Shown: positions 12,097 to 34,344 of the stretch, in pieces
Layout: every line of letters starts with the position of its first letter
Position numbering within the stretch: position 1 is the first letter of the stretch
Assembly (NCBI GenBank): GCA_016432365.1
Contig: CP066686.1
Coordinates: 793,501-857,500, forward strand
From: Candidatus Woesebacteria bacterium
GTDB lineage: Bacteria; Patescibacteriota; Microgenomatia; UBA8517
Direction: 5' to 3'
Length of the DNA stretch: 64,000 nucleotides
The notes under the pieces: generated by a model
Seen by the model: the letters and a program-made list of their open reading frames with translations, nothing else
Databases searched by the model: none
Told to the model about the DNA's origin: nothing
Program-made: the position numbers and the translations under genes

Positions 12097-12624
12097 TTAC
12101 AAGATATGAAACGCAGCCAAATATCCGCTCGCCGGATTAAACCCAAAGGTGGTAAGTGTTACCGATTTAAAAACATCCGACCCTCTAAGAGTGCTCAAAA
12201 AAACACCCAGCTCGCTATTGCTTCTAAAGATTACGGTTAAATCAAGTTTTTGGGGGTCTATATCTAATTCGTTTAAACTGGAGTTTTGCCCGATGTTTGC
12301 CAAAAACGGCTCAATCTTATTTAAAATTTTATTGGAACTTGCAACTGCCTGAACAGCTTTAATTTTAGAAAGACGATCTTTAAGAAGAACTGCCTTCTGT
12401 TCGGTTTTTTCCTGCGAAACAATTTGAGATTTAAGTGCATCCACTTCCGAACTTATACCTTGAAGTTGGATAGAGCTAAAAACAAAGAAAGCAGCAAGTC
12501 CTAGCCCAAAAATTATGAATCCTGAAAGTAAAATCACGTTCAGCATTCGTACCACCTTTAGTATTTTTCCCAAAGGACCGCTAACTGTATATTCTGCAGG
12601 TAGTAAATTTAGTGTGACCGCCAT
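12097..12624 (-). CDS. pilN: type IV pilus assembly protein PilN
   Basis: N-terminal LNLLP motif, one TM segment and a coiled-coil region. Confidence 0.6.
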   Translation of the reverse strand: MAVTLNLLPAEYTVSGPLGKILKVVRMLNVILLSGFIIFGLGLAAFFVFSSIQLQGISSEVDALKSQIVSQEKTEQKAVLLKDRLSKIKAVQAVASSNKILNKIEPFLANIGQNSSLNELDIDPQKLDLTVIFRSNSELGVFLSTLRGSDVFKSVTLTTFGFNPASGYLAAFHIL

Positions 12625-13700: not shown

Positions 13701-14621
13701 TTATTTTGTAATCCCTGTTGAACTATAAATTGCAAAGTCAAAAACAGATGGCGGCTCCGGCCAACCCTGAAAAACACTTAAACGCCTATTAGATTGCCCC
13801 GCAGTACCTGTTGAATCAATTTGCGATCCTTGGGAGGGGAGTACCGTGTTTCCTGCAAAATTAACATCAAAGCCGATTTTGTGTGCAACATCGGTATTGT
13901 AAAAAATCCTAAGGCGCATAAACTGTAAACCATTTTGTGTATTATAAGAACCGGCAGGTATACCTAAGGTAGATAAATCAATTTCTTTTTGAAACTCATA
14001 GGTTTCGCTTCCGATTGTACAAGTTCCGGCATCGGGAGCAGAAAAACTATTTGGCTTAGCGGGAGTGTCGGAAGAAACCCTTGTTGTATATGGATCAAAC
14101 GCGGCTCTTGCGATTTTTATCGTTGCTAAATCCCCTGGAGTTGTTTCGTAAAAAACAGACATTTCTACCGCCGGAGTTGTTGAAGCCGATGCAGACGTTC
14201 CGGGATTTCCCCAACAAACTTTTACAGTTCTACCTATAAAACAAGGGCTACCAGCACCGCAAGTTAGATCGTCATTATTTGCCGAATCGTGTGCGACAAA
14301 CCAGACGGTTGCGGAATCCCCCGAAGTTAATGTTAAGGGATAAATATAATTGTTTGCCCCCTCTGCAACACTAGTAACACTGGACGAGTAAGTGGCATTG
14401 CCAATCGATATATTTGTTCCTCCCGCTCCGATTACCAAAGCTTTTTCTATTCCCGCCTCTGCCGCAGAAAAAGCACGGATCGCCTCTTCACTTCCCGAAG
14501 AAACCGCAATCCCGGTAATACTACGGGAAAGAATAAAAAGCACCAGAGTAAGTACTACCGCAAGGAAAAGAAGTATTAATACCAGTGCCTGACCGCTTTC
14601 TCTTTTGTACTTTACTTTCAT
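13701..14621 (-). CDS. hypothetical membrane-anchored protein with a pilin-like N-terminus lacking Glu+5
   Basis: KRESGQALVLILLFLAVVLTLV followed by a Ser/Thr/Gly-rich extracellular domain. Sits immediately upstream of pilMNO. Confidence 0.35.
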   Translation of the reverse strand: MKVKYKRESGQALVLILLFLAVVLTLVLFILSRSITGIAVSSGSEEAIRAFSAAEAGIEKALVIGAGGTNISIGNATYSSSVTSVAEGANNYIYPLTLTSGDSATVWFVAHDSANNDDLTCGAGSPCFIGRTVKVCWGNPGTSASASTTPAVEMSVFYETTPGDLATIKIARAAFDPYTTRVSSDTPAKPNSFSAPDAGTCTIGSETYEFQKEIDLSTLGIPAGSYNTQNGLQFMRLRIFYNTDVAHKIGFDVNFAGNTVLPSQGSQIDSTGTAGQSNRRLSVFQGWPEPPSVFDFAIYSSTGITK

Positions 14622-15519: not shown

Positions 15520-17598
15520 ATGACAATAGAATCGCAAATTATGGGTAGTTCTGAGCAAAATGAAACTTATTTAGATGCGGGTGAGCCTTCGAGGAGCTTC
15601 AACGGCATGGATTGGAAATATCAGATACAGTTTGCTAAAGATCACCTAGGTTTTGAGTCTGAGAACAGCATCCGTGAGGCAGCCGATATTTCTTCAAGAA
15701 CCGTTAATGTTGCCTTCCCGTCATTCTCAGTCAGGGCCGGGATAAAAGCGATGATCCATTCCGTTCGTGAAAATACAGTTTTTTATCCGAAATTATTAGA
15801 TGAGGGTAATCACATTGGGCTAGGAGTTGCTCATGCTCACTTTGAGCTCCACCCACCTAAATCACTAACAAACAAAGAGGACCAGACGGCCTTCAAAACC
15901 CAGGCAAAAAGCACTATCACCAATCTGCTTAGGTGGCATGAATTAAAGGCTATTCAAACGGTAATGGAAAAATCCGGTCGAAATTCCATCGAAGGAATTG
16001 ATCAACAGATGTCTAAAGCAGATCTCGCCACTCTACTTGATACCAACGAGAAAGCAATTAACCAAGGGGTCCATACACTTGAATTACTGGCAAAAGGGAT
16101 AAGACCAACTCAAGTAGGAGAGTTGGATAGGGAAAGAATTGCAACAGCGCAAAAAAAGGGCAGAGAAATAAAATTTACTTTTAAGAGGGGGCTTGTAAAT
16201 ACGGTTCTAACAGCCTCTGTCGACAGCAGTGTCGAAGAAGCTGTGCAGAAAATCCGCCGTTTCAGAAGTATAAGAAGAAATGTATCTATTACTTCGGTTG
16301 GGTTGGCATTTACAATATCTTGTTGTGCTCCAACAACGTTTCCCGTTGTTTTTACCGAAACCCCGACAACTACACCTGCTACCTCGCCGACACCGGAAGC
16401 AACATCTACCCCCGAAATCCCTTTTGGATTACCCATTTCCCAGGCCGACATAAATAAGTTTTTAGACGGTAATACTGATCCAAATATCGACCCCCAAAAA
16501 ATCCAGGGGTTTGATATGGGGGCCGAAAAATTACTTTTTGGCCAAGGCAAAGACGGCCTTAATTACGGAAGAATTTTTGTTAACGGTGTATGGAAAGCTA
16601 TCTACGGAACAGTTGCTCCCGACAATTCGGTCATTTGGGCATTGCCGAAAGGTGGCGCGACCCCCGTTGCTCCCGGGACCGCAATTTCGGATTTTGATGT
16701 TGTTCTGACAATGGACTTGCGAACCGATGCCCAGGGAAACATTATTGCACAATACACCCCTCCCGAAGAATCTAAAGATCAAAACGGAGGTAAAGTTTTC
16801 AAAATATCAGTTGACAGTCCCATTGCTTCAGGGATAAAAATGGCCGCACCTATAGATTTTGAAATACAGAAAGCATTACTACCCGAAAATCTGGGGGGAG
16901 ACACCAGATATTCAGATGAAATTCAAAAACACCAATGGGAATACGGAGTTGATGAGAAAACTGGAAACAAGGTAATCAAAGTAAACTGGACGGATACCGT
17001 TGACAAAAAGGGTAAACCTAATTATGAAGTAGCCTATGAAAAAGTTGGGGATAATTGGGAAATAAGGAAATTTGTACTAAAAAGATGGGAAGTAGATATC
17101 AGCAAGATGACCTGTGTGGATATACAGGATAGAAGTAAGGCAGGTAGTTGTGTTCAGGAAACTTTAGAAAACCCAGTACTTTTTTATGTTAAATTCAAGG
17201 CCGGTGACTTGGTAATGGAACAGAGAAAAGACCCGTTTACGGGTGAAGTTTTGCCCGGATCAGTAATTTACACATATGCACATACTAGAAGGGTTCCAGG
17301 TGGACCGGAAGAGGTTGTAAAAATTGCTGTACAAATTGATATTGGTGACGGTATAGATATTTTGCATAGCCCGACCAAAACTAAGCCGGTGGTTTCAATT
17401 TTTGATGTTTCCCGTAAACTATCAAGCGACGACGCAATTACTTATATTTTCACCAAAAGTAAATATAATGAATATGACCACGACTACTATAAATGGCTGA
17501 ATGTATTAATATCTTTCCAAAAGCAACTATACGATGGTGTATTTGATCCTTCAACAATATTTTATCCAGTTGGTTTCACAATTGGACCTGTGTATTAA
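15520..17598 (+). CDS. large hypothetical protein (692 aa) with an internal Thr/Pro-rich linker
   Basis: No family recognised. The internal hydrophobic segment TISCCAPTTFPVVF is followed by the linker TPTTTPATSPTPEATSTPE. Long ORF with consistent codon usage. Confidence 0.45.
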   Translation: MTIESQIMGSSEQNETYLDAGEPSRSFNGMDWKYQIQFAKDHLGFESENSIREAADISSRTVNVAFPSFSVRAGIKAMIHSVRENTVFYPKLLDEGNHIGLGVAHAHFELHPPKSLTNKEDQTAFKTQAKSTITNLLRWHELKAIQTVMEKSGRNSIEGIDQQMSKADLATLLDTNEKAINQGVHTLELLAKGIRPTQVGELDRERIATAQKKGREIKFTFKRGLVNTVLTASVDSSVEEAVQKIRRFRSIRRNVSITSVGLAFTISCCAPTTFPVVFTETPTTTPATSPTPEATSTPEIPFGLPISQADINKFLDGNTDPNIDPQKIQGFDMGAEKLLFGQGKDGLNYGRIFVNGVWKAIYGTVAPDNSVIWALPKGGATPVAPGTAISDFDVVLTMDLRTDAQGNIIAQYTPPEESKDQNGGKVFKISVDSPIASGIKMAAPIDFEIQKALLPENLGGDTRYSDEIQKHQWEYGVDEKTGNKVIKVNWTDTVDKKGKPNYEVAYEKVGDNWEIRKFVLKRWEVDISKMTCVDIQDRSKAGSCVQETLENPVLFYVKFKAGDLVMEQRKDPFTGEVLPGSVIYTYAHTRRVPGGPEEVVKIAVQIDIGDGIDILHSPTKTKPVVSIFDVSRKLSSDDAITYIFTKSKYNEYDHDYYKWLNVLISFQKQLYDGVFDPSTIFYPVGFTIGPVY

Positions 17599-17658
17599 AT
17601 ATCTCCAATAATACTTTGTCTGTATTGAACGCAATCATTAGTTGTTGTAAAGTTAGAT

Positions 17659-19455
17659 GTGGTTAAAAAGATCTTATTTCCAATACTTCTGATACCTATC
17701 ATCGTGTATTTTTTCTTAAATAGCGCACCGCAAGTGGACGCGACCAATGGTTGCGGAGGGTCAAGTGTGTGTAACAGTACAGTAGTTCACAACAGTTATA
17801 CTTGCAGTTTATCTGGCACAACGTGCAGTAGAGTTTTTTCAGGAACCTATACTTCTGACTGTCACGTATCGGAGAATGATTGCTGGACAAATAGTGCTGA
17901 CGCCTCCTGCGCTTTAAATGGCGATGAGTGTGTGTTGTCTATTAAAAGCAGAAAATCCAGCTGTTGTGGTTCGCCGGGTGGTGGGGGGGCCGGTGGGGGA
18001 AACTGTAACGGAATCTATACCGTCGAGACCAGCTGCGTCGACCCGGACAGATGCAAGAATGAAAACGGCGGACGTTGTGATATTAATGGTAATGTGTGGT
18101 GTTCAAGAATCGTCTGTGGTGCTTGCCCCGCAACGACTCCCGTCATTGACCCAATAACAACAACAGCAACAACTGCAACAATTAGCTGGACTGCAACAGG
18201 CGGCACATCTACAAAACTTTATATCACCACCGATTCAAATGACTTTAACCATAATTGCGCCGGTACAAATTTCTGTGTTTTTAAGGGTAATGCGCCTGCT
18301 TCACCCTACACCGTAACGGGCCTAACTCCGGGGGTTAAATACTATGTAAAGGTTTTAAACAGCTATGTGCAAGGTCAACAGTCTTGTAATACAGAAGCAA
18401 CTGCCGACTTCACCACATCTTGCACGTTAATCGCTCCTCCGTCGTTGTCCATGAAAGTTGGCGACCCGTCCCAAGCATTTGTTGTAAATCTTAACCCAAA
18501 TAACACAGGTCTCACTGTCGGCTTCGTTGCAACACCTTCAGGAATCATTGATTTTTCCACGAACCAAGGAAATGCCGGCAATGGCTATCAAACAAATATT
18601 TCGGCGGTAGCAGCCGGACCAACAACAATTACTTCTTTTGTGACGAATCCGTCCTGCCAGGCACAAACGTCGGTAAACATTACAAACAATAATGCCGGGG
18701 CTTGGTGGCAAGTGAAGGATGCCGATCTTTCGGCCAATGGTGATATTAACAGTAGTGTTCCTGACGGACAGTATTTTGATCTTGATGGAAGCGGAGGCTA
18801 CCCCGGAGTTCCAACTTATTCGTCGGCCTCGAATCTGACAAACACAAACGTGTCATTGAACTCAAAATGGCTGGCTCAAAGTACTACGGTTGGCAGCAAG
18901 AATTATGACTATCAATTTTTTGCAAATCAGGTTCCTACCGATACCGTGACTACAACTATTCCCAACGGCAATGTCGACGGTAGTTTTTTTGAAAGCGGGG
19001 GAACCTTGTCTTACGGATATTATTGGTACAAATATACCGGAAGTGGGACAAATCTTTCAATTGACACGCCCGTTAATTTAACAGGTACAGATAGAAAAGT
19101 TATACTTTTGGTTGAAGGAACGGGACTTACTATAAAAGGAAACATCAATTTAACCGACGGACGGGAATTTTTTGGAGCATTCGTAAATGGGGCAATTGAC
19201 GTTGACCCACTTGTAACCTCACTCGAAGGAATTTATTTGGCAGATTCTACTTTTAGTACCGGGGCTGGTAATACAAAGCTTACAGTACGGGGTTCTGTCG
19301 CTACCTACGGAGGTACATTCCTGCAAAGAGACTTGGCAACAGGTGCAGGTAATACCGGCCCTGCTGAGTTATTTGAATACGCCCCAGACCAGATTCTTAT
19401 GTTCCCCACAAGGCTCGGCGCCAGGAAAATAAGCTGGAAAGAGATAGCTCCATAG
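17659..19455 (+). CDS. secreted Cys-rich protein with an FN3-like domain
   Basis: Signal peptide, then a ~130-aa segment with more than 20 Cys including CCGSPGGGGAGGGNC, then an FN3-like ISWTATGG...YTVTGLTPGVKYYVKV, then a beta-rich C-terminus. Confidence 0.45.
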   Translation: MVKKILFPILLIPIIVYFFLNSAPQVDATNGCGGSSVCNSTVVHNSYTCSLSGTTCSRVFSGTYTSDCHVSENDCWTNSADASCALNGDECVLSIKSRKSSCCGSPGGGGAGGGNCNGIYTVETSCVDPDRCKNENGGRCDINGNVWCSRIVCGACPATTPVIDPITTTATTATISWTATGGTSTKLYITTDSNDFNHNCAGTNFCVFKGNAPASPYTVTGLTPGVKYYVKVLNSYVQGQQSCNTEATADFTTSCTLIAPPSLSMKVGDPSQAFVVNLNPNNTGLTVGFVATPSGIIDFSTNQGNAGNGYQTNISAVAAGPTTITSFVTNPSCQAQTSVNITNNNAGAWWQVKDADLSANGDINSSVPDGQYFDLDGSGGYPGVPTYSSASNLTNTNVSLNSKWLAQSTTVGSKNYDYQFFANQVPTDTVTTTIPNGNVDGSFFESGGTLSYGYYWYKYTGSGTNLSIDTPVNLTGTDRKVILLVEGTGLTIKGNINLTDGREFFGAFVNGAIDVDPLVTSLEGIYLADSTFSTGAGNTKLTVRGSVATYGGTFLQRDLATGAGNTGPAELFEYAPDQILMFPTRLGARKISWKEIAP

Positions 19456-21342: not shown

Positions 21343-21882
21343 CTAATAACTTCTCAATTGAATTTGTGTACTTGAAGATATGGCTGTTGTTTGAGAACCT
21401 GTTCCGGCAGCGCTTTGCATTTCAAGAAAAACACTAACCGTAGGTGGGTTGGCTGCCGTGCCCGGAGCACATGTAAAATTACATGCTGTAACAAGCACAT
21501 CATCGGGTGTTAGTCTTCCTGAGCCGGAGGCAACGTAAGGGTCTGCCCCACTCATATTTATGCACGAAAATGAGGTTGCATCTCCGTTTTGATCAGTATA
21601 ATTTAAAATATGGTTATCGGTATTGGTGGCACAGTCGGGGACTGAGTTAGCATTTCTAATCTGGCGTTCTATAATACTCATGGTATAACCTAGGTTTTCA
21701 CTAACTTTTGTCTGAGCCTCGCTTTTCTTGCTTCCCTGTAAAGACAAAATAATTGAACCTGTAACAATGAGTCCTAAAAAAGCGAACAGTGTGACAACAA
21801 TCAAGATCTCAAGAAGCGACATCCCCTCCCAATTTTTGATTTTTGATTTTTGATTTTTGACTTTCATCATCTTTGTCTCCAA
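21343..21882 (-). CDS. type IV pilin-like protein (prepilin; real start probably 21870)
   Basis: Leader MMKVKNQKSKIKNWEG, then MSLLEILIVVTLFAFLG with Glu+5. The leader is encoded by a (TTTTTGA)x4 repeat. Confidence 0.7.
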   Translation of the reverse strand: METKMMKVKNQKSKIKNWEGMSLLEILIVVTLFAFLGLIVTGSIILSLQGSKKSEAQTKVSENLGYTMSIIERQIRNANSVPDCATNTDNHILNYTDQNGDATSFSCINMSGADPYVASGSGRLTPDDVLVTACNFTCAPGTAANPPTVSVFLEMQSAAGTGSQTTAISSSTQIQLRSY

Positions 21883-22319
21883 TCCGAAAAATTAGTAGCG
21901 CTTTTAACTTCATGCTTTCCCTGCGAATCTTGCCAGTAAACAGTAACGTCCGTTTCAATTAAGGTCTTATTATTATCGGTAGTTATACTAAAGTTCAACT
22001 GTCTTTTGAATAAAGTGTCGGAAACTTCGTCCCCATCTATACAGGCCCTCTGTAGAGTCCATGATAGGTCCTTTAAACACCAGACGGGGGATTGGGCCCT
22101 AACGAGAAATCCGTCAATGTCACCATCCCTCTGACCCCTAAGCCATTCAGTTGCCTGTTGGGCATATACAGCCGCCCGACTGCTGTTTTTTGAATAGGTA
22201 GAATTTCTTACGGATCCGGCAACCAGCGAAACAATCCCGGTGATTATAAGGGCAGAGACTGCTAAAGCAACAACTATTTCGAACATCGATTGTCCCGAAT
22301 TTATTTTTTTATTTGACAT
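21867..22319 (-). CDS. type IV pilin-like protein
   Basis: MSNKKINSG followed by QSMFEIVVALAVSALIITG, with Glu+5. Confidence 0.65.
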   Translation of the reverse strand: MSNKKINSGQSMFEIVVALAVSALIITGIVSLVAGSVRNSTYSKNSSRAAVYAQQATEWLRGQRDGDIDGFLVRAQSPVWCLKDLSWTLQRACIDGDEVSDTLFKRQLNFSITTDNNKTLIETDVTVYWQDSQGKHEVKSATNFSDWRQR

Positions 22320-22320
22320 T

Positions 22321-22872
22321 TCATTTGATCTCGCCTGACGAAGTTATAGTTATTACGAATGTGTTACTTATTCCCACCTGACTTACCGTAATTGTTGACT
22401 CTGCTCCGCTTACAAGGTTGGTTCCATGTCCCAATACTTTGAACTCAATTGGGTTGGGGGCAGGTGTTGAAAGAGTCATTCCGCTAGGTAAGTCAACTGT
22501 TTTAACTACAACTGAACCACCGGTGCAGTTTGCGGCTACAGAATATTGAGATGAACTATTAACTGTAAATATATATCCACCCAGACTATTCGGCGGGTTA
22601 CATTTTGCATCCAACGGTTTTTGCCCGGACAACGCCTGCTGTTGGGCGAGTCTCAGATCCCCCTGAATTACTTTCGCAATTCCGCTGACTGCCTGGCGTC
22701 TCGAAAAATCCCTGAAGCTTGCAAACCCAAAACCAAAAAGCATTCCTATGATTGTTAAACCCACAAGAACTTCAATCAGAGTGTAGCCAGAAACTTTTGA
22801 CTTTTGCATTTTGCATTTTGACTTAAACATCAGGGATTTGTTACTTTGTAGTTGCATGTTGCTGCTCCACAA
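22321..22872 (-). CDS. type IV pilin-like protein (real start probably 22830)
   Basis: Leader MFKSKCKMQKSKVSG, then YTLIEVLVGLTIIGMLFG. Confidence 0.7.
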   Translation of the reverse strand: MWSSNMQLQSNKSLMFKSKCKMQKSKVSGYTLIEVLVGLTIIGMLFGFGFASFRDFSRRQAVSGIAKVIQGDLRLAQQQALSGQKPLDAKCNPPNSLGGYIFTVNSSSQYSVAANCTGGSVVVKTVDLPSGMTLSTPAPNPIEFKVLGHGTNLVSGAESTITVSQVGISNTFVITITSSGEIK

Positions 22873-23318
22873 GAAGTGGCCGCAACAACCCCACAGGAAG
22901 TAGTAGCTCCACCTTGTTCAAGAGCTGCACACAGTTCGTATGTAGAACCGTCTAATGAATAATACTTGTAATCACTGTTGGGAGAAGTAGGGTCAAACGG
23001 AACCTCAGAAAGATAGATGTTGGTATCTAAACAAGAGGAAGTAGAAAGTCCGTCACCTTTAAGCTGCGCTCCAAGTGTCAATGGGTACTTATTACAATCA
23101 GCCTTATATATTTCGACAGCACTTCTTATTTGTTCCAGATCGGTCTTTCTTTTTGCGTCCCTGGCCGACTGTCTGGCACCCTGAAGTCCAAAAACGGAAA
23201 GGCCGATAAGAATTCCTATTATGGAAATCGTCACCAGAAGTTCGATCAAGGTAAATCCATCAGATTCGTTGTCTTCCCTTCTTTTCGACCTTTTTTGCAC
23301 TCTCAATTCATAATTCAT
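22830..23318 (-). CDS. type IV pilin-like protein
   Basis: Leader ...RREDNESDG, then FTLIELLVTISIIGILIG. C-terminal Cys pairs. Confidence 0.7.
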   Translation of the reverse strand: MNYELRVQKRSKRREDNESDGFTLIELLVTISIIGILIGLSVFGLQGARQSARDAKRKTDLEQIRSAVEIYKADCNKYPLTLGAQLKGDGLSTSSCLDTNIYLSEVPFDPTSPNSDYKYYSLDGSTYELCAALEQGGATTSCGVVAATSCGAATCNYKVTNP

Positions 23319-23334
23319 AATTCAATATTCAATT

Positions 23335-23847
23335 TTAGAGAGGGCATACCCCTCCTACCGGCAAATTCCAACTCGCCGTATCAATTGTTCCGACTTTTCC
23401 CCCTGAACAAATAACCCAATATTTATCGGAGCTCTCCAACTTATCCCACAAAACATATTGAGTTCCCAGTGCCGTTCCGTCCGAAGCAGTTCCATCTGAT
23501 TGATATTTATAAACGAAAAGACCTGTGGTGTCATTTACGCTTGGATCGGCAGGACAACCTGTCATAGACAAATCTGTACAGAGTGTGGTAGCTGCTCCCA
23601 CTCCTGAAGCATCCGGGCGTGATGGATAAAAAGTGTTATTTTTATTAGCGTAACTTTCCAGCGAACTTTGAAATTGTTTGATGTCTGATTTTCGTTGTGT
23701 GTCCCTCGCTTGGCGCTGAGCCGTGGTAAACGAAGCCAGTGATAGGGCAGCCAAAATTCCTATTATAGAAATCACGACCAAAAGTTCGATTAGTGTGAAG
23801 CCAAAACTTTTCGCTTTTCGCTCTTCGTTTTTCGTTATTGATATCAT
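23335..23847 (-). CDS. type IV pilin-like protein
   Basis: MISITKNEERKAKSFG, then FTLIELLVVISIIGILAA. Confidence 0.7.
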   Translation of the reverse strand: MISITKNEERKAKSFGFTLIELLVVISIIGILAALSLASFTTAQRQARDTQRKSDIKQFQSSLESYANKNNTFYPSRPDASGVGAATTLCTDLSMTGCPADPSVNDTTGLFVYKYQSDGTASDGTALGTQYVLWDKLESSDKYWVICSGGKVGTIDTASWNLPVGGVCPL

Positions 23848-24287
23848 TGTTTAATTTGAAACATCCATTTTGTTGTTGGACACCAAACGTCATAGGGTGA
23901 TGCGGCGGCTGAGACACCCTGAGCATCGCTGCTGTTTTCTAAACAAGCAGAAAGTGTATAGCTATTTCCGTCGGCACCAACCTCGTATTTATATGTCTGA
24001 TCCGATAATGGATCCCCGGGAAGTTTGCTCATATATGTTACTCCCGTGTCTGTCCAGGGTAACCCCCAAAGACTGTCGAAATAGGTTCCCACAGGGTAAG
24101 AATTTTTGTCATTGTAATAAAGTCTTAAAGCCGTAGCAATATTTCTTATATCTGATTTCCGTGAGGCATCCCGCGCCCTTCCTCTGGCGGAGTTAAGATT
24201 CGCCGAGACAAGTGTCGCAAGTATACCGATAATAGAAATAACCACAAGAAGTTCAATTAAAGTAAAGCCCCGGGCAAGTTTGTACAT
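23844..24287 (-). CDS. type IV pilin-like protein
   Basis: MYKLARG, then FTLIELLVVISIIGILAT. Contains the pilin-like stretch ARGRARDASRKSDIRNIATAL. Confidence 0.7.
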   Translation of the reverse strand: MYKLARGFTLIELLVVISIIGILATLVSANLNSARGRARDASRKSDIRNIATALRLYYNDKNSYPVGTYFDSLWGLPWTDTGVTYMSKLPGDPLSDQTYKYEVGADGNSYTLSACLENSSDAQGVSAAASPYDVWCPTTKWMFQIKQ

Positions 24288-24302
24288 AATTAAGTATATA
24301 AT

Positions 24303-24830
24303 TTATTCGGACGGTTTAGTATTACTGCTGGTTATGGCAAAGTTACAATATTTAGTACTTCCTCCGCACAAATAACTGCTTGCAGGCAAAAGTAAATTCG
24401 CGTCCTGCGTATTTTCAAGGTAAGCAAAAAGTTGAAACTTTTGATTGGATGGGGGATCTACTATACGATAATAATAACTTTGATCGGATGCCGGGTCCTT
24501 GGGCAAAACTTTAAAATAAATTGTTTTTCCGTCGCTAAATTGTCCGGATCCCCAAACACACAAAGTTCCCGTCGGGCAAGCCATTATTGAACCTCCGGAA
24601 TCATCGGGATATTTGCCGTAATCAGAGTAAAAAAGCTCAAGCGCGCTTGAAATTTGTTTTAAATCGCTTTTCCTTTCGGCGTCTCTTCCTCTTATTTGAG
24701 AGCTCCTGAAAGAAACCAATGCAATACTGGCCAAAACGCCTAAAATCGAAATAACCACGAGAAGTTCGACAAGTGTAAATCCCTTTGAAAATTTCCGCGA
24801 AGTGATCATACTAAATATAATATACAGCAA
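24303..24830 (-). CDS. type IV pilin-like protein
   Basis: ...RKFSKG, then FTLVELLVVISILGVLAS. Confidence 0.7.
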   Translation of the reverse strand: MLYIIFSMITSRKFSKGFTLVELLVVISILGVLASIALVSFRSSQIRGRDAERKSDLKQISSALELFYSDYGKYPDDSGGSIMACPTGTLCVWGSGQFSDGKTIYFKVLPKDPASDQSYYYRIVDPPSNQKFQLFAYLENTQDANLLLPASSYLCGGSTKYCNFAITSSNTKPSE

Positions 24831-24832
24831 AC

Positions 24833-25423
24833 TCAGTTTGTTTTCTTAAGAAAACGTTCCTCTTGACACTGTTCCAAACTTTTATCTGTTGTACAACCAA
24901 AAAAACGGCCCATATTGCAAATGCGAGCCCCACATTTTATATTTCTGGATACTATTTTTTGATCATATTCAGGTTGTCTCGTCTCCTCGAAAGAACCAAA
25001 AACTTGGAACGTGCTTCCATCAGAAAAGTAAGTATATGTAACCCCTTTATTTAAATCAGGGTCGCTCGGCATTTTCTTTAAATAAACTTTCGAACCCCCA
25101 GGAGTTAGATCGACGAGTGAGTCTTTACCCCACTGGCAGGGGACAAGATCGACAACTAACTTCCCTGTACTGTCCATCTGAGCTACTGCTCCATCTTTTT
25201 TACATCCAAGAATCATTCCGTCCCGGGAGGGTGGAAAAATGCCAAAATCATCCCGGTAGGAAATTAATGCATCTAAAATAGCTCCCATATCGTCCCTTCT
25301 AACCTGATCTCTGGATCTTTTTATACTTGAGGCAAAATTGGGAATAGATATCGCTATCAAGATAATAAAAATAATAATTAGCGACTTTGTTTCTTCTTTA
25401 TTAAAAAATTTCATTATTTCCAA
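24833..25423 (-). CDS. degenerate pilin-like protein (no canonical G/E+5 cleavage site)
   Basis: A hydrophobic N-helix followed by SIKRSRDQVRRDDMGAILDAL parallels the RDASRKSD..AL region of neighbouring pilins, but the prepilin cleavage motif is absent. Confidence 0.4.
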   Translation of the reverse strand: MEIMKFFNKEETKSLIIIFIILIAISIPNFASSIKRSRDQVRRDDMGAILDALISYRDDFGIFPPSRDGMILGCKKDGAVAQMDSTGKLVVDLVPCQWGKDSLVDLTPGGSKVYLKKMPSDPDLNKGVTYTYFSDGSTFQVFGSFEETRQPEYDQKIVSRNIKCGARICNMGRFFGCTTDKSLEQCQEERFLKKTN

Positions 25424-26067
25424 GGAGTGCAGTCATTACCGGGCAAACCACATTGTCCATAGCAACTCGAATTTTGATAATTAGGATCACACTCCGGCCC
25501 CGGACGAGCAGGGTCCCAAAGGATTGGCACACAGGCGCTATTTTGACATCCGTAAAAAGACGACGGAACGCCGGTTCCTGTTGGTTGGGGAGTGCCACCC
25601 GGTGGCGGAGTAGTAACCCCACTGGTACCCGCCGTATTAGCCGGAGCGTTTGGAGAAGTCGCAATATAATCAAAAGCTGAATTTGGTCCTATCCAGCCGA
25701 CTGTCGCAGAATCTAAGTGATTTTCAAATTTTGCGTAAATTCTATACCAGGAAGGACAAACACTATCTTGATATTCATAATAATACGAAGCATTTGTCGA
25801 AGGATCGCAGGGAATCTTATTAAGATATGGGGTAAGTCCGGTTCCGGGATTGCAAGTAACCGTCTGGGAAAGCGGGTAACAATTGTGGTCTTTCTCATAT
25901 TCCTCAACGGCCACCTGAATTCTTTGAATATCAGCTTTTCTTCTTGCATCCTTACCTTTGAATATCTGACCGCGGAAATAAGCAAGAGCGATAATGGCCA
26001 GTATGGCAATTATGGACATAACAACAATAAGCTCAATAAGTGTAAAGCCTTTCGTATTATTTTTCAT
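25414..26067 (-). CDS. type IV pilin-like protein
   Basis: MKNNTKG, then FTLIELIVVMSIIAILAI. C-terminal Cys-rich, Pro/Gly/Thr-rich tail. Confidence 0.7.
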   Translation of the reverse strand: MKNNTKGFTLIELIVVMSIIAILAIIALAYFRGQIFKGKDARRKADIQRIQVAVEEYEKDHNCYPLSQTVTCNPGTGLTPYLNKIPCDPSTNASYYYEYQDSVCPSWYRIYAKFENHLDSATVGWIGPNSAFDYIATSPNAPANTAGTSGVTTPPPGGTPQPTGTGVPSSFYGCQNSACVPILWDPARPGPECDPNYQNSSCYGQCGLPGNDCTPWK

Positions 26068-26086
26068 TTTTATATAGTCATATTAA

Positions 26087-26114
26087 AACAAAATGTCAGT
26101 TTTGACATTTTGTT
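26087..26114 (-). promoter_or_regulatory. perfect 12-bp inverted repeat hairpin between pilD and the downstream pilin
   Basis: AACAAAATGTCA-gttt-TGACATTTTGTT. On the minus strand it is followed by TTTTAATAT. Confidence 0.4.
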
Positions 26115-26143
26115 TGGCAAGCATAGAATTCCTATATACCGAA

Positions 26144-26183
26144 CTCAAAACATAAAGTTGTAAAACCGTCATTTTGTTTTGAG
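26144..26183 (-). promoter_or_regulatory. inverted repeat (9-bp arms, 22-nt loop) just after the pilD stop
   Basis: CTCAAAACA...TGTTTTGAG. Confidence 0.3.
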
Positions 26184-26187
26184 TTTG

Positions 26188-26940
26188 CTATAAACCTAAA
26201 AATATTAATAACTCATGACCAAATAAAAGAGTAAATAAAAGTCCGATTACCAAAAACGGTCCGAATGCTATTTGATCCTTTAGTCTTGCTCGACCACCTA
26301 GAATTAGTATGATTCCGGCGATTCCTCCTGTCAAGAAAGATAAAAAAAGCCATATAAGACTCAGCTTTAGTCCGATTAGAAGTCCACCAAAAACAGCAAA
26401 TTTTACATCACCTAGGCCCATGCCACGGCCACGGGTAAAAATGTGAATTAACAACAGTAAAAACGCTGAACCGAATCCGGCAAAAATATTTGGATACAAA
26501 ATTCGGCTATCTGTTAAAAACAGAAAAAGAAAGATCAAAAGAACTCCTAAAAAAACAAAATAATCCGGAATGATTTTATGCTCAAAATCAATTATAAAAA
26601 TCAAAATCAAAATTGAAAAAACAGAAAGTGAGTAGAGAAGTAAGAAAATGTTCATATTAAAAAGGTTAAACAAACACAAAAAGCCTAGGGCAGTAAATGC
26701 TTCAATTAAAGGATATCGGAATGAAATGTGTTTCTTACAATTTCTACATTTTCCACCTAAAAATAAATAAGAAAGTAGGGGAATATTGTCGTACCAAAAA
26801 ATTTGTTTCTTACAACTGTCACAAAAGGAACGACCCTTAGCGTTGGAAATTCCACGGGGATAACGCCACGAAAATGCTGCATAGAAAGATCCAAATACTA
26901 AACCGAGTAAAATAAACAACAATTGTTGAAGCAATATCAT
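26188..26940 (-). CDS. pilD: prepilin peptidase (A24 family, PilD)
   Basis: Zinc-binding Cys pairs (CDSCKKQ, CRNCKK), a multi-TM core and the GDVKF-type Asp motif. Confidence 0.8.
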   Translation of the reverse strand: MILLQQLLFILLGLVFGSFYAAFSWRYPRGISNAKGRSFCDSCKKQIFWYDNIPLLSYLFLGGKCRNCKKHISFRYPLIEAFTALGFLCLFNLFNMNIFLLLYSLSVFSILILIFIIDFEHKIIPDYFVFLGVLLIFLFLFLTDSRILYPNIFAGFGSAFLLLLIHIFTRGRGMGLGDVKFAVFGGLLIGLKLSLIWLFLSFLTGGIAGIILILGGRARLKDQIAFGPFLVIGLLFTLLFGHELLIFLGL

Positions 26941-27608
26941 TCAGGGACACATTCGGAGCAGGCTCCAGTTGTCCAGCCCGCATCATTAACTGCGGTGCAG
27001 GCTCCGGCGGCCGGAACTCCTGAAGCTGTAAGAGCTTGGGTTGTATCAAACATCTTGTTAGTGTTTGACGCTGCGCTTGCAATCAAGACTTGTCTGTTGG
27101 AATTTGATTTTGGTGACCAACATACATAGACAGCCGCAGATGCTCCCTGGGCTTTACCTACAAATAATTTAGCCTGGGTACTGGTTGGACCAACCCAGTT
27201 TTTGTTTAAAAATGTCTTTTGCAATTCCAACGAAGCTATAAGCTCACCCGAGTTTGCCGTTGTTCTACAAGACGTCCCGTTCGCTCCACAAACTCCAACT
27301 GAGGCGTCATCTGCACTCAAAAATGGAAATGCATCGTCCGGACCCTGACCAACCCCATCTAAACACTGCGTACCACCATTTGTTGTACAAGCAGACGAAT
27401 TCCAAGGAAAAGCACTATGAGAAACATAATATCTCTGAATGGCCGAAACAATCTGACTGGCATCCGCTTTCATTCCGGCATCTGATGCCCGATTTGCTTG
27501 TTCAATGGGGTTAATAGCCGCAATAACAATTGTTGCAATAATACCAAGAAGGGCAATAACAATAAGAAGCTCAACTAATGTAAATCCTTTGGACAGATAC
27601 TTTTTCAT
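26937..27608 (-). CDS. type IV pilin-like protein (first gene of the pilin array)
   Basis: MKKYLSKG, then FTLVELLIVIALLGIIAT. C-terminal Cys residues. Confidence 0.7.
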   Translation of the reverse strand: MKKYLSKGFTLVELLIVIALLGIIATIVIAAINPIEQANRASDAGMKADASQIVSAIQRYYVSHSAFPWNSSACTTNGGTQCLDGVGQGPDDAFPFLSADDASVGVCGANGTSCRTTANSGELIASLELQKTFLNKNWVGPTSTQAKLFVGKAQGASAAVYVCWSPKSNSNRQVLIASAASNTNKMFDTTQALTASGVPAAGACTAVNDAGWTTGACSECVPE

Positions 27609-29724: not shown

Positions 29725-30229
29725 AATGAACGACTTCAAAACATACACAGATTACAAGACAGTCCTTTCCGTAAACGCCTTAATTTTTTCCGAAGGCAAA
29801 ATTTTAATGCTTAAAAGAGCGGATGACAAAAAAATTGATCCCGGACTTTATTCCGGGATTGGCGGAAAAGTAGAACCTCACGAAAGTTTTTATAATGCAA
29901 TTCTTCGTGAAATCAAGGAAGAAACAGGTTTGACAGAATTTAAATCAATAAAACCTTATTCGGTTACTCAAATCCCGTACCCACCCACGGACTCTGAATG
30001 GGTAAATGTCTATTTTATTGTCCATATTACGAAACAGGTTGAATTAGAACCAACTGAGGACGGTACATTTCATTGGGTAGGCATCGAAGAAGCCTTAAAA
30101 CTACCAACACCGAACGATGTCCACGATTACCTGGAGATTCTTTCTAAAGACCCCAACGCCTTCATTTTTGGTTTTTATGACCACGACAAGGAAGGAAACC
30201 TAACAAACAAAAAAATTAAAGTTGTCTAA
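29699..30229 (+). CDS. NUDIX hydrolase
   Basis: Nudix box GIGGKVEPHESFYNAILREIKEETGL. Confidence 0.7.
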   Translation: MTGKTLLLKMNDFKTYTDYKTVLSVNALIFSEGKILMLKRADDKKIDPGLYSGIGGKVEPHESFYNAILREIKEETGLTEFKSIKPYSVTQIPYPPTDSEWVNVYFIVHITKQVELEPTEDGTFHWVGIEEALKLPTPNDVHDYLEILSKDPNAFIFGFYDHDKEGNLTNKKIKVV

Positions 30230-31431
30230 AAAGAACTTGTTAAATTGTAAATCGGAAGAATAACAGCAATAACTAAAAATCCAACCCCAAGCCCTAGCAT
30301 TATCATAACCAATGGTTCTATTGCAGCTGTCAAGCCTTTTACCTTCTCGTCGCTTTCCATTTCAAAAATGTGGCTGATTTTGGTTAAAACATCGTCCATT
30401 TTTCCCGTTTCTTCACCCACCGCAATCATCTGAGAAAGTAAAAAGGGGAAAGCCTCGGGGTGCCTTGCAAAGGAAAAGGCGATAGGGAAACCCTTCTCCA
30501 CCTGTCTGGAAACATCTTTTAATGCATCGGAGATGACACTATTTGATACAACTTCACTTGTAATGTTCAAGGCCTCAAGAATTGGAACACCGGCCCCCAC
30601 CATTAAAGACAGGGTTCTTGTAAGTTCTGTCAAAATTACTTGTTTTTGCAGGTTCCCGAAAATAGGAATTTTAAAAACCATTTCATCGACTTTTTTCTTT
30701 CCCATTGCGGTGCTCCTGTAAAGTGTAAACAAATAGTAACCAACACCTCCGATTGCTAAAATGACAAACCAGTAATTAACAAAAAAACCGGAAATTCCCA
30801 TTAAAATTCGCGTAGGTAAGGGGAGTGTGGCATTAAAATCACCATAAAGCGAAGTCAGTTTGGGAATAACAAAAATCATCATTATAAAAACAACTACAAC
30901 CATACCTACCCCGATTATCGCAGGGTAAATTAAAGCCCCTTTAACTTTACCGTTAAATTCTTGCTGCTTTTCCAGGGTATCTGCCAATCTAAGAAGCACG
31001 GCATCCATAACACCCCCGACCTCACCCGATTTAACCAAGGATAAATAAGTTCTGGTAAAAATTTTGGGGTGTTTATTCATGGCACTCGAAAGAGATTCTC
31101 CGGCTTCAACATCCGCCAAAATCTGGGCAACAACTTTTTGCATAGCCCCATTGCTTTGAGATCTAAGTATTAGAAGTGCTTCCGTGATGGGTAGCCCGGC
31201 TCCGATCATTGTTGAAAGCTGACGGGTGAAAGTTGAAATGTCCCCTGTTGTTATCCGTTCTTTGAATTTCTTTACAATCGAAAATGGTGAATCCATTTTC
31301 TCGGAAATAGAAATAACATAAAAGCCCTTGCCCCGAACCAGTTTTGCCGCATGGCTCGTGTCACTCGCCTCGACTTCTCCTGACACCAATCTTCCTTGTC
31401 TGTCTTTGGCCTTGTAATTAAATCTTTTCAT
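30226..31431 (-). CDS. pilC: type IV pilus inner-membrane platform protein PilC (GspF family)
   Basis: Duplicated GspF domains and three TM helices. Downstream of pilB and pilT. Confidence 0.8.
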   Translation of the reverse strand: MKRFNYKAKDRQGRLVSGEVEASDTSHAAKLVRGKGFYVISISEKMDSPFSIVKKFKERITTGDISTFTRQLSTMIGAGLPITEALLILRSQSNGAMQKVVAQILADVEAGESLSSAMNKHPKIFTRTYLSLVKSGEVGGVMDAVLLRLADTLEKQQEFNGKVKGALIYPAIIGVGMVVVVFIMMIFVIPKLTSLYGDFNATLPLPTRILMGISGFFVNYWFVILAIGGVGYYLFTLYRSTAMGKKKVDEMVFKIPIFGNLQKQVILTELTRTLSLMVGAGVPILEALNITSEVVSNSVISDALKDVSRQVEKGFPIAFSFARHPEAFPFLLSQMIAVGEETGKMDDVLTKISHIFEMESDEKVKGLTAAIEPLVMIMLGLGVGFLVIAVILPIYNLTSSF

Positions 31432-31443
31432 GCAGAAGTTTTT

Positions 31444-32502
31444 TTAAACACCTCGTACTAAACGCGCAAGCTCTTCGGGTCTTAACGACCAACTCTGGGC
31501 AACTTCCATAGTTACCAGACCACGTTTTACAAGATCTGCCAGGGAACGCTCAAGAGTGCTCATTCCGGCTTCCTGTGAAGTTTCCAAAATGCTTTCGATC
31601 TGGTGAGTTTTACCTTCACGGATAGAAGTTTTTATAGCTGTGGTCCCCAACATTATCTCGTAAGTAACAACCCTGCCTTTGGTTGTAGAAGGGATTAGTC
31701 TTTGGGAAAAAACCGCCTCAATTACATTTGATAGCTGAAGCTTTACCTGCCCCTGCTGTTCTTCAGGGAAAACATCGACGATTCTGTCGATTGTTTGGGC
31801 GGCACTATTTGTATGAAGAGTAGCAAAAACCAAATGGCCTGTTTCTGCAACTGTTAATGCAGCTGCAATTGTTTCGTAATCACGCATCTCTCCAACCAAA
31901 ACCACATCCGGATCTTCTCTCAGTGCGGACCTTAAAGCTATTTCCCACGAATGTGTATCTGTTTGCATCTCGCGTTGAGAAATGACCGATTTAATCGGCT
32001 TAAAAATAAACTCAATCGGGTCTTCGATGGTTACGATGTGAGATGTGCGGGTTTCGTTAATTTCATCTATCATTGCCGCAAGGGTAGTTGATTTTCCATG
32101 CCCTGTTGGCCCGGTCACAAGAACCAACCCCTGCCTTAACGTCGTAAAAGAATGAAGAATTTTAGGTAGTCCCAAAGCATCTATTTTTGGAATTGTCAAA
32201 GGAATCTGTCTAAAAGCAACTGCTGTAGTGTTTTTCTGGGTATAGGCATTGGCTCTAAACCTGGCCTTATCGGAGAATGGTAAAGAAAAATCAAGTTCCT
32301 TGTTCACGGTTAACCTTTCGATTTGTTCGCTTGTAAGAACTTGTTTAAGAAGTTCGTTGATAGAATCCGGTGTAGAAATACCGGCTCCGGGCGCACTTAA
32401 CAATTCCCCATCCACCCTTAGAGTAGGGGGGACTCCGGCAACCAAATGCAAATCACTGGCTTTCAAGTCAATTGTTTGTTGTAATAATTGTTTGATGTCC
32501 AT
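31444..32502 (-). CDS. pilT: twitching-motility retraction ATPase PilT
   Basis: Walker A GPTGHGKSTT, Asp box, and AIRNLIRE-like TSIREGKTHQI. Length 352 aa. Confidence 0.8.
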   Translation of the reverse strand: MDIKQLLQQTIDLKASDLHLVAGVPPTLRVDGELLSAPGAGISTPDSINELLKQVLTSEQIERLTVNKELDFSLPFSDKARFRANAYTQKNTTAVAFRQIPLTIPKIDALGLPKILHSFTTLRQGLVLVTGPTGHGKSTTLAAMIDEINETRTSHIVTIEDPIEFIFKPIKSVISQREMQTDTHSWEIALRSALREDPDVVLVGEMRDYETIAAALTVAETGHLVFATLHTNSAAQTIDRIVDVFPEEQQGQVKLQLSNVIEAVFSQRLIPSTTKGRVVTYEIMLGTTAIKTSIREGKTHQIESILETSQEAGMSTLERSLADLVKRGLVTMEVAQSWSLRPEELARLVRGV

Positions 32503-32513
32503 AGTTAAACAGT

Positions 32514-32600
32514 CAAAAGGTAAAAGTTAAAAGGTAAAAGTTTCAGAAATTTTTGAATTTTGATTTGTAATTTTGAATTTTGCATTTTGAATTTTGAATT
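32514..32600. repeat. tandem repeats: 2x14-nt AAAAGGTAAAAGTT, then ~7 copies of heptamer TTTGAAT
   Basis: Read directly from the pilB-pilT intergenic sequence. Confidence 0.7.
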
Positions 32601-34344
32601 ACTCTTGTGCAACTCTCAGTATCTCTTCCACTGTAGTGATTCCTTCAGCAACCTTCAAGTACCCATCCTGTTTAAGTGATACCATTCCTGCCTCTCTCGC
32701 TGCATTGTCTATATCTCCGGCCGAGGCCCGTTCCAAAATAAGTTTACCAATTTTTTCTGTTACCGTGATAGTCTCAAAAATACCCATTCTTCCCAAATAA
32801 CCCGAGTTTCCGCAATCCGGGTCCCCCTTACCTCTATAAAGTTTGACCTCTCCCTGTGGCTGCCAAAGACTACCCAATTCTTTCTTCATCTCGCTTACAA
32901 TTTTAGGGTCTGGAACATAACTTTCTTTACAATCGTCATGGATTTTTCTGACAACTCTTTGGGCAACAAGACAGGTAATAGAGGAGGCCAATAAGTACGG
33001 TTCCGCGCCCATGTCTAAAAGCCTGGGTAGTGCACCTGAAGCATCATTTGTATGAAGTGTAGAAAATACCAAATGTCCGGTTAACGAAGCCTGAATGGCA
33101 AGATCCGCAGTTTCGCTGTCGCGGATTTCTCCTACAAGAATAATGTTTGGGTCCTGTCTAAGAAATGATTTCAATCCGTCGGCAAATGTGAGCCCAACAG
33201 CAGTGTTGATTTGGACCTGATTGACGCCGGGGATTTTGTATTCGATCGGGTCTTCCAATGTAACTATGTTGACTTTTGGAGTATTTAGTCTGGATAAAAC
33301 AGAATACAAAGTGGTCGTCTTTCCGGAACCCGTTGGTCCACAAATTAAAATAATTCCATGCGGACGCAAAATTGCATCCTGAAGATCTTTAAGACTTTTA
33401 CCCCTAAGGCCCAATTCCTGAAGCGTAGGGACTCCCCCGGATTTTTTGAGTAAACGCATCACAATTTTTTCTCCCCAAGTTGTGGGCAGAGAAGAGATAC
33501 GAAGGTCTACTTCTTCCTCACTACCTTTAAAGTTGAATCTACCGTCCTGGGGAACTCTTTTTTCGTCAATTTTCATCCCTCCCAAAATTTTGATTCTGCT
33601 TATTAATGAATCGTGCAGTTCCTGCGGAATTGTGAGCTTCTCCTGTAAAATTCCGTCAATTCGATAGCGAACTCGGGTTGACTTTTCTTCGGGCTCAATG
33701 TGAACATCGCTGGCCCTTGATTTAATAGCAAAGTCGAGTATTTGGGATACAATTTCTGCTATTTTTTCTTCTCTTATAAATCCGCCTCTGGAAACTTCGG
33801 CAGCTTTAATTCCTTCTCCTTTTCCTCCGGGTGTAACTTCTTTCATTGCAGCCGTAACCTGTTTGGTTAATGAGGTTGTATAGCGGGTTTGAATAAAATC
33901 GTCCACTTTCATGGGCTCCGCCGCGTAAGTTTTTACATGGAGACCTGTTTTTTGTTCGATAAATTCTATAGCCGCAAGATCCAGAGGATCAGCCATGGCA
34001 AGGCCCAAACTTTTTTCTTTTTTATCGTAATTAACAGGGAAAACTCTAAATCTTTCTGCGACCTCCGAGGGGAGTGCTGCTAAGGCATTGGGGTCAATCG
34101 GAGCAGTGTTTAAATCAACATATGGGATGTTATAGAGTTGGGCTTTAGCTTGAACAAGTTTATCTTCAGGAACCATCGAGGCCTCTTTAATAATGTCTTC
34201 CTGTGTTTTACCGCTTTGAATTTCGGTGAACTTTACCTGTTCGGCACGCCGTGCATCGAGTGCCCCCAAAGTCACTAAAATATCAGCAAGAGTTCCGGTG
34301 GAGTTTAAACTATTAGTACCGTTTACAGGTTGAGCAGTGGGCAT
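32599..34344 (-). CDS. pilB: type IV pilus assembly ATPase PilB (GspE family)
   Basis: N1/N2 domains and Walker A GPTGSGKTTTLY. No tetracysteine motif found. Length 581 aa. Confidence 0.85.
   Translation of the reverse strand: MPTAQPVNGTNSLNSTGTLADILVTLGALDARRAEQVKFTEIQSGKTQEDIIKEASMVPEDKLVQAKAQLYNIPYVDLNTAPIDPNALAALPSEVAERFRVFPVNYDKKEKSLGLAMADPLDLAAIEFIEQKTGLHVKTYAAEPMKVDDFIQTRYTTSLTKQVTAAMKEVTPGGKGEGIKAAEVSRGGFIREEKIAEIVSQILDFAIKSRASDVHIEPEEKSTRVRYRIDGILQEKLTIPQELHDSLISRIKILGGMKIDEKRVPQDGRFNFKGSEEEVDLRISSLPTTWGEKIVMRLLKKSGGVPTLQELGLRGKSLKDLQDAILRPHGIILICGPTGSGKTTTLYSVLSRLNTPKVNIVTLEDPIEYKIPGVNQVQINTAVGLTFADGLKSFLRQDPNIILVGEIRDSETADLAIQASLTGHLVFSTLHTNDASGALPRLLDMGAEPYLLASSITCLVAQRVVRKIHDDCKESYVPDPKIVSEMKKELGSLWQPQGEVKLYRGKGDPDCGNSGYLGRMGIFETITVTEKIGKLILERASAGDIDNAAREAGMVSLKQDGYLKVAEGITTVEEILRVAQE

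Follow-up and report, generated by a model that had tools for sequence, protein, structure and literature searches.

A ten-pilin gene array with an embedded prepilin peptidase gene is conserved among relatives of a Candidatus Woesebacteria bacterium

Introduction

Type IV pili (T4P) are regarded as the chief means by which ultrasmall bacteria belonging to the Candidate Phyla Radiation (CPR) locate their hosts, hold on to them and feed on them; beyond the Saccharibacteria, almost nothing is known about these pili. In the genome of a Candidatus Woesebacteria bacterium (assembly GCA_016432365.1, contig CP066686.1), eleven tightly packed open reading frames (ORFs) encode ten pilin-like proteins, here called P1 to P10, together with the prepilin peptidase PilD. 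Why would a single locus hold so many pilins? An initial annotation of the stretch that we analyzed (64,000 nucleotides, positions 793,501 to 857,500 of the contig; hereafter, the window) took the repertoire to be unusually large and saw in it a possible source of antigenic or functional diversity in a host-attached organism, with a set of minor pilins as the alternative. The organism is indeed of the host-attached CPR type, and the question that remains is whether these genes form a changeable collection of surface proteins or a fixed set of parts.

Earlier work provides some orientation: CPR bacteria are enriched in T4P genes and in a pilin family, which co-localize, and PilQ is absent from them (PMC6744442), and a complete Microgenomates genome has major pilins, minor pilins and PilD at one locus (PMC7143001).

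Results

The size of the array was judged against 80 loci surrounding homologs of PilD, in which every plus-strand ORF was compared with the eleven proteins of the window. All eleven genes were recovered as reciprocal best hits, and in the same order, in 21 loci from as many genomes, and at least nine of them in 28. When prepilin motifs were counted in the 25 related loci with full flanks (i.e., those whose PilD is at least 45% identical to that of the window), the median was 8 and the range 6 to 11, compared with 10 in the window, and more distant CPR bacteria and other phyla had fewer genes. The comparison across related genomes that the initial annotation had proposed therefore shows the set to be typical of its clade and not unusually large. 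Among 185,579 species genomes, the nearest relatives of PilD came from metagenome-assembled genomes (MAGs) of Woesebacteria and Microgenomates, with identities no higher than 64%. Many MAGs titled 'uncultured Gammaproteobacteria' (L003, L010, L014 and others, from binchicken/SRP co-assembly sets) also hold a complete operon of the Woesebacteria type, and these titles look like taxonomic mislabels.

Each position in the array has its own ortholog, and the mean identity of these orthologs ranges from 47 to 60% per slot, against 54% for PilD, with P4 to P7 the best conserved. Paralogs within the window are no more than 46% identical to one another, and such low identity implies that the duplications predate the clade. 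Gene order extends beyond the pilins: two loci from other metagenomes (L085 and L086) share the succession pilB-pilT-pilC, P1-pilD-P2 through P10, and relA. For P1 to P10, two close relatives show 68–94% identity to the counterparts in the window, which compares with 84% for the neighboring RelA, 88% for NUDIX and 86% for GNAT. As judged from these sequence comparisons, the array is a fixed, anciently conserved operon of its clade and not a fast-varying repertoire. A local difference in the surroundings is that an IS200/IS605-type Y1 transposase gene lies between pilC and the NUDIX/CYTH genes in both L085 (4994–5680) and L086 (4469–5161), at a place where the window has no such gene.

All genes of the array (21343–27608) are on the minus strand and run, in the direction of transcription, from P1 through pilD to P2 and on to P10 (Table 1). 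Neighboring genes overlap or are separated by no more than 16 nt, the exception being a 120-nt spacer between pilD and P2, and the whole resolves into four parts: P1, PilD, six GspG-type paralogs (P2 to P7), and a trio resembling GspH, GspI and GspJ (P8 to P10). The ORF positions given in the initial annotation, and its placement of pilD after the first pilin, agree with this layout.

Table 1. Genes of the pilin array and of the other pilus-related clusters in the window. A slash in a sequence separates positions -1 and +1.
Feature	Position	Strand	Characteristics
P1 prepilin	26937-27608	minus	leader MKKYLSKG/FTLVELL; mature 215 aa; 8 Cys; leads the array
PilD prepilin peptidase / N-methyltransferase	26188-26940	minus	250 aa; start overlaps P1 stop by 4 nt
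pilD-P2 spacer	26068-26187	minus	about 116-120 nt; two hairpins
P2 GspG-type prepilin	25414-26067	minus	MKNNTKG/FTLIELI; Pro/Thr-rich linker; Cys-rich C-terminal module (10 Cys)
P3 GspG-type pilin-fold protein	24833-25414	minus	193 aa; non-canonical N-terminus MKF/FNKEE
P4 GspG-type prepilin	24303-24809	minus	MITSRKFSKG/FTLVELL
P5 GspG-type prepilin	23844-24287	minus	MYKLARG/FTLIELL; smallest; mature 140 aa
P6 GspG-type prepilin	23335-23847	minus	leader of 16 residues, ...KAKSFG/FTLIELL
P7 GspG-type prepilin	22830-23318	minus	leader of 21 residues, ...DNESDG/FTLIELL
P8 GspH/FimU-like minor pilin	22321-22830	minus	...KSKVSG/YTLIEVL
P9 putative GspI/PilV-like minor pilin	21867-22319	minus	MSNKKINSG/QSMFEIV
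P10 GspJ/PilW-like minor pilin	21343-21870	minus	MMKVKNQKSKIKNWEG/MSLLEIL
pilB	32599-34344	minus	T2SSE 6.7e-126, plus MshEN
pilT	31444-32502	minus	T2SSE 1.1e-44
pilC	30226-31431	minus	T2SSF 5e-65
PilX_N-type pilin-like gene	13701-14621	minus	306 aa; no Glu5; outside the array, directly upstream of pilM
pilM	12634-13647	minus	PilM_2 4.5e-51; TIGR01175 1e-58
pilN	12097-12624	minus	PilN 1.1e-4
PilO/GspM-like gene	11417-12094	minus	weak GspM match, 2.7e-4

When a strict prepilin pattern (G/F, Y, Q or M-x-x-x-E) was combined with a test for a hydrophobic stretch and applied to the entire 64 kb, nine ORFs were recovered, all of them within the array and on the minus strand. This clustering is far beyond chance, and the number is that of the canonical N-termini recognized in the initial annotation. 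A short basic leader ending in Gly at position -1 occurs in nine of the ten pilin-like genes (the exception being P3), and all ten have Glu at +5 and the hydrophobic stretch. With the likely start codons applied, the leaders range from about 7 to 21 residues, which corrects the 6 to about 20 previously given.

Matches to protein families lead in the same direction. Every one of the ten matches a pilin or pseudopilin model of NCBIfam; the cut-off of TIGR02532 is passed by eight, and that of the Pfam family N_methyl (PF07963) by seven, with P3, P9 and P10 lacking any Pfam family match. Orthologs of the latter two do match N_methyl in most cases (20 of 28 for P9 and 25 of 27 for P10). The pilin 'lollipop' fold, in which a long alpha-1 helix lies on a beta-sheet, is present, with a GspG fold for P3 and a GspJ-like fold for P10. 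Beyond the N-terminal region the proteins differ, and the C-terminal domains are divergent from each other, as the initial annotation had it. Cysteines in the mature proteins number 8, 10, 6, 4, 2, 4, 6, 2, 2 and 4 from P1 to P10, and in that all of these counts are even, they fit an arrangement in disulfide pairs. PilD itself has both peptidase A24 domains (PF06750, 7.8e-29; PF01478, 6.4e-14), a CxxC...CxxC motif, and the sequences IDFEHKIIPD and GLGDVKF, which we take to be its catalytic Asp motifs; it is predicted to cleave the leaders after Gly-1 and to N-methylate the new N-terminus.

Genes for the remainder of a pilus machine are nearby. A pilB-pilT-pilC block (30226–34344) is situated 2.6 kb upstream of P1, a synteny kept in close relatives, and pilM, pilN and a PilO/GspM-like gene form a further group within the window. 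PilB and PilT are 98% identical in close relatives, as both are highly constrained.

P1 to P7 are of the GspG type (best match to TIGR01710, 9.4e-16), and T2SSG exceeds its Pfam cut-off in P4, P5 and P7. Which of these proteins builds the filament? P1 (N_methyl, 2.4e-7, with N-terminal matches to TIGR02532 and GspG) is our best guess for the most likely major subunit, because it heads the array, has a promoter-like site a short way upstream (TTGACA-17-AATACT, 27646–27618, minus strand), contains proportionally more Gly, Ala, Ser and Thr than any other of the ten (a fraction of 0.42), and is set apart by the spacer in this strain. Identities of P1 across genomes show no correlation (rho 0.25) with those of the ten remaining genes: it is only 47% identical to its counterpart in L004, where P2 to P10 are 66–87% identical, yet 66–69% identical to those in L013 and L028. 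Such uncoupled divergence would be in keeping with an exposed major subunit. P5 is an alternative candidate for this role (N_methyl, 1.4e-8; T2SSG, 5.4e-5; TIGR01710, 9.4e-16), and its matches in the PDB are to the N-terminal helices of geopilin, Thermus PilA4, Myxococcus PilA and PulG.

The other G-type paralogs give comparable matches: P2 to N_methyl (2.7e-9) and, over residues 6–98, to TIGR01710 (7.2e-10), with an ortholog at the same place in related loci; P4 to N_methyl (6.3e-9), T2SSG (6.4e-5) and TIGR01710 (5.1e-15), the gene call in L083 being 168 aa; P6 to N_methyl (7.6e-8) and TIGR01710 (3.2e-11); and P7 to N_methyl (3.3e-7), T2SSG (4.8e-5) and TIGR01710 (1.6e-12). Functional specialization of these six conserved paralogs (P2 to P7) is plausible. 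We considered P4 as a DNA-receptor pilin and rejected this, its match to ComP_DUS (E = 0.0017) being below the cut-off.

The alternative raised in the initial annotation, a set of minor pilins, proves right for the last three genes, where P8 is GspH-like, P9 probably GspI-like and P10 GspJ-like, such that the array closes in the canonical H-I-J order. In P8, the GspH family PF12019 covers the globular domain (residues 69–180; E = 0.0013, with 19.7 bits against a cut-off of 21); 13 of 27 P8 orthologs match GspH (best E = 3.1e-6), and P8 matches TIGR01708 at 4.6e-7. A profile of 28 P9 orthologs, aligned by hhalign to the single sequence of E. coli GspI, gave a probability of 75% (E = 2.5e-5) over 97 columns, i.e., residues 3–103 of 125, whereas GspG, GspH, GspJ and GspK all remained at or below 11%; P9 also matches XpsI (5.5e-6) and PilV (1.4e-3). 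A Pfam scan found no T2SSI or T2SSJ domain in the orthologs of P9 and P10, and the ortholog profiles of P8, P9 and P10 matched only the N-terminal helices of major pilins among PDB sequences, a comparison by which H, I and J are not separable.

A K-type subunit would complete such a set, and a candidate occurs outside the main array, which has none. The protein encoded by the PilX_N-type gene has the N-terminus ...ESGQALVLILLFL, with G/QALVL and no Glu at +5; it matches PilX_N at 7.3e-4, below the cut-off, and has no NCBIfam match. We regard it as a candidate K-type or tip minor pilin and a possible eleventh pilin-like gene. Two large plus-strand ORFs (15520–19455; 692 and 598 aa) lie between this pilX-pilMNO block and relA. 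They have almost no family matches; the second (598 aa) contains a Cys-rich N-terminal region and one FN3 domain, and L086 has a counterpart with an identity of just 41%. The products of the two ORFs may be surface or adhesin proteins.

P3 departs from the other pilins at position -1. The initial annotation described the ORF at 24833–25423 as degenerate, and its N-terminus is indeed non-canonical; but the true start is the ATG at 25414, which overlaps the stop codon of P2 (TAATG), and what this start reveals is a conserved variant with no decay. Among 31 positional orthologs, position -1 carries K, L or F throughout and never Gly or Ala, position +1 is Phe in 27, +2 is Ser or Thr, +3 is Lys in 23, +5 is Glu in all 31, and Pro at +22 and four cysteines are invariant. 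The profile of this family aligns to E. coli GspG with 94.9% probability.

Prepilin peptidases nearly always require Gly at -1, and because P3 has none, it probably escapes cleavage by PilD. The family is large: among 1.84 billion representative proteins, 95 clusters fall within it at E ≤ 1e-30. In the top 150 matches (P0103–P0252), 82 have a stub leader (Met-Lys-x) without Gly-1. A smaller share combine a longer, Gly-1-bearing leader with polar residues at +3 and +4 like those of the others, a form that is probably ancestral; pilins of the ordinary GFTLIE kind do not enter the list until about rank 109. Searching the literature for pilins without Gly-1 returned nothing specific. This conserved subfamily is the sole mildly novel point of a locus that, as the finding of a genome scan, is ordinary for its clade.

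The spacer between pilD and P2 contains two strong hairpins (inverted repeats I1 and I3); in the second, UUUUAAUAU comes directly after a perfect stem of 13 bp. Its sequence is unique in the window, and the folding energy of its RNA is -33.7 kcal/mol (z = -5.1). A strong promoter-like sequence, TTGACA-16-TAGAAT, is also present within it on the plus strand (26102–26129). The spacer is possibly a partial terminator or a regulatory site; it is specific to this strain, as L085 and L086, both close relatives, lack it and have pilD and P2 abutting. Two Logan assemblies (SRR12113420 and SRR12113421) are 100% identical to the window, and both break in the spacer, at 26120–26162. An invertible promoter or phase switch was considered at this site and rejected, there being only local hairpins, with no convincing inverted repeats flanking the spacer, and no alternative junction in assembly contigs that match the window perfectly.

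Two further features lie elsewhere in the window. A 1408-aa ORF (39709–43935, plus strand) with CHB_HEX_C, Fn3_assoc, Big_13 and purple-acid-phosphatase-N domains encodes a probable large surface protein, and the start of a 352-aa ORF (51906–52964) is overlapped by a SAM riboswitch (RF00162; 51816–51931, plus strand; 53.5 bits, E = 1.6e-9).

Discussion

The locus is very probably the complete subunit operon of a single pilus machine in the Woesebacteria cell, resembling type IVa pili (T4aP) and of the monoderm type. The division of labor that we infer from its gene content (i.e., the identity of the major pilin, the priming of assembly at the tip, the roles of P2 to P7, and the biological function) would be as follows. 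P8 to P10, probably along with the K-like protein, would act as primers of assembly on the PilC/PilMNO platform, finishing at the tip of the pilus, and the filament, with P1 as its likely principal subunit, would be extended by PilB and retracted by PilT. P2 to P7 would probably be low-abundance or alternative subunits with specialized heads, some of them Cys-rich. Host attachment, motility and DNA uptake are the likely uses of such a pilus.

Several observations weigh against this reconstruction. The similarity of the pilins to GspG, GspH, GspI and GspJ does not reach the equivalog cut-offs of Pfam and NCBIfam, and the genes are 'like' these families and not members of them. The I-like call for P9 relies on an hhalign probability of 75% with one sequence as the target, and the K-like assignment on a sub-threshold match to PilX_N. 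At 215 aa, P1 is large for a major pilin, and P5 is both smaller and better conserved. Furthermore, the survey covers 64 kb of the genome, and a second machine or further pilins could lie elsewhere.

An unlikely but serious alternative is that the G-type paralogs serve as major subunits for at least two different filaments assembled by one machine, for example a thick pilus for motility and a thin one for adhesion or DNA uptake, as with PilA4 and PilA5 of Thermus. All seven G-type genes have been kept across the whole clade, there is only one set of PilB, PilT, PilC and PilMNO in the window, and the structural matches include Thermus PilA4 (6xxd) and a heteropolymeric monoderm pilus (8pfb). 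There are also likenesses in the two pili of TM7x (PMC11623550) and the heteropolymer of Streptococcus sanguinis. However, TM7x makes its two pili with two separate machineries, and the overlapping stop and start codons of this tight operon suggest that its genes are expressed together and not in alternative programs.

If the pilins were instead interchangeable major subunits, varying the surface of the pilus by differential expression or recombination, the antigenic diversity proposed in the initial annotation would follow, and there are observations that lend themselves to this. C-terminal domains differ strongly among the paralogs, P1 has diverged independently of the array at deeper distances, and the C-terminal domains of TM7x pilins are reported to be diversifying across phyla (PMC11623550). 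We nevertheless consider this model highly improbable. All slots show one-to-one collinear orthology in 21 to 28 genomes, with ortholog identities equal to or above that of PilD, and rates of divergence in close relatives are ordinary when set beside those of neighboring genes. Moreover, the only DNA repeat family in the array is a 56-nt segment coding for the N-terminal helix, at 61–73% identity, and long repeats through which cassettes might recombine are absent. Each copy is full-length and has a start and leader of its own, there are no silent truncated cassettes, and no invertible element was found.

A recombination island from pilD to P10 was also examined as a candidate, given that PilD is 75% identical in close relatives and PilB 98%. 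It was rejected: DNA identity is 74–86% throughout, and RelA, NUDIX and GNAT, at 84–88%, are not set apart, such that the gap between PilD and PilB is attributable to constraint on the ATPases and not to mosaicism.

Scarcely credible is the view that the array encodes the pseudopilus of a type II secretion system (T2SS) or competence (Com) system, a short piston for protein secretion or DNA uptake; the best NCBIfam matches are to GspG, GspH, XpsI, XpsH, GspJ and ComG models, P10 bears the NCBI name 'type II secretion system protein', and CPR bacteria depend on the uptake of DNA and nucleotides (PMC6744442), but every score is below its equivalog cut-off (16–28 bits for ComG, where 49–80 are needed), the PilT retraction ATPase and PilM/PilN are present and T2SS and Com systems have neither, the secretin GspD, GspC and GspL are missing from the selected ORFs scanned in the 64-kb window, CPR bacteria have no outer membrane and no PilQ (PMC6744442), and DNA uptake by a retractile T4P is itself compatible with the single T4aP-like pilus that we favor. 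It is because the equivalog cut-offs are not reached and PilT and PilM/N are present that we file the system as T4aP-like and not as T2SS or Com.

The single T4aP-like machine also offers a speculative role for P3. If never cleaved by PilD, P3 could dock through Glu5 beneath the last subunit of a growing filament while providing the next subunit with no free methylated Phe1 amine, its charged stub holding it in the membrane. Were this true, such a base subunit would be the logical mirror image of GspK/PilX, the tip subunit that lacks Glu5. That P3 stands for a class of pilin both widespread and so far undescribed, which would end the chain and anchor it in the membrane as a base subunit or else regulate filament length or retraction, is a conjecture to which we give rather little credence.

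With its seven G-type genes and its H-I-J trio, the fixed ten-pilin operon of Woesebacteria and Microgenomates amounts to a parts list for structural and expression studies, and we argue that the multiplicity of pilins in these bacteria reflects a conserved division of labor and not variation of the cell surface. Among its closest known counterparts are locus 1 of the T4P of Nanosynbacter lyticus TM7x (pilC1-B1-T-M1-N1-O1-pilD and five pilins) and, in Microgenomates bacterium Ch65, the sole T4P locus. In common with CPR T4P loci, which are reported without PilQ, the genes described here specify a monoderm T4aP-like set of PilB, PilT, PilC, PilM/N/O and PilD, with pilins clustered beside pilD, pseudopilin-like minor pilins, and a large pilin-like protein lacking a PilD signal. 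TM7x has 12 pilins at four loci for two pili, including pseudopilin-like minor pilins and PilX proteins without PilD signals (PMC11623550); unlike the pilins of TM7x, which are spread over those loci and two machineries, the ten pilin-like genes here make up one uninterrupted array, with pilD second, seven genes of the GspG type, and an order that is fixed in Woesebacteria. Pili named Pam have also been described recently in CPR bacteria (bioRxiv 10.64898/2026.03.03.709456).

Similarities extend to more distant systems. The occurrence of P8 to P10 in H-I-J order at the end of the cluster recalls GspH-I-J-K of T2SS, FimU-PilV-W-X of the Pseudomonas T4aP, and ComGD-E-F-G of competence pili in Gram-positive bacteria, although similarity to the GspHIJK sets is below the family cut-offs, the K-like gene is 7 kb away upstream of pilM, and P10 is shorter than a classical GspJ. 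Pilin-related sequences also lie close together at pilE/pilS of Neisseria, but those include silent 5'-truncated cassettes and long shared DNA, neither of which occurs here, where each gene is a full-length conserved ortholog. The combination of many prepilins, one peptidase and specialized minor pilins is shared with Synechocystis (pilA1 to pilA12), Thermus (PilA1 to A5) and Clostridioides difficile (nine pilins); whereas those repertoires are scattered over several operons, that of the Woesebacteria bacterium forms a single collinear block, which a class-level lineage has conserved.

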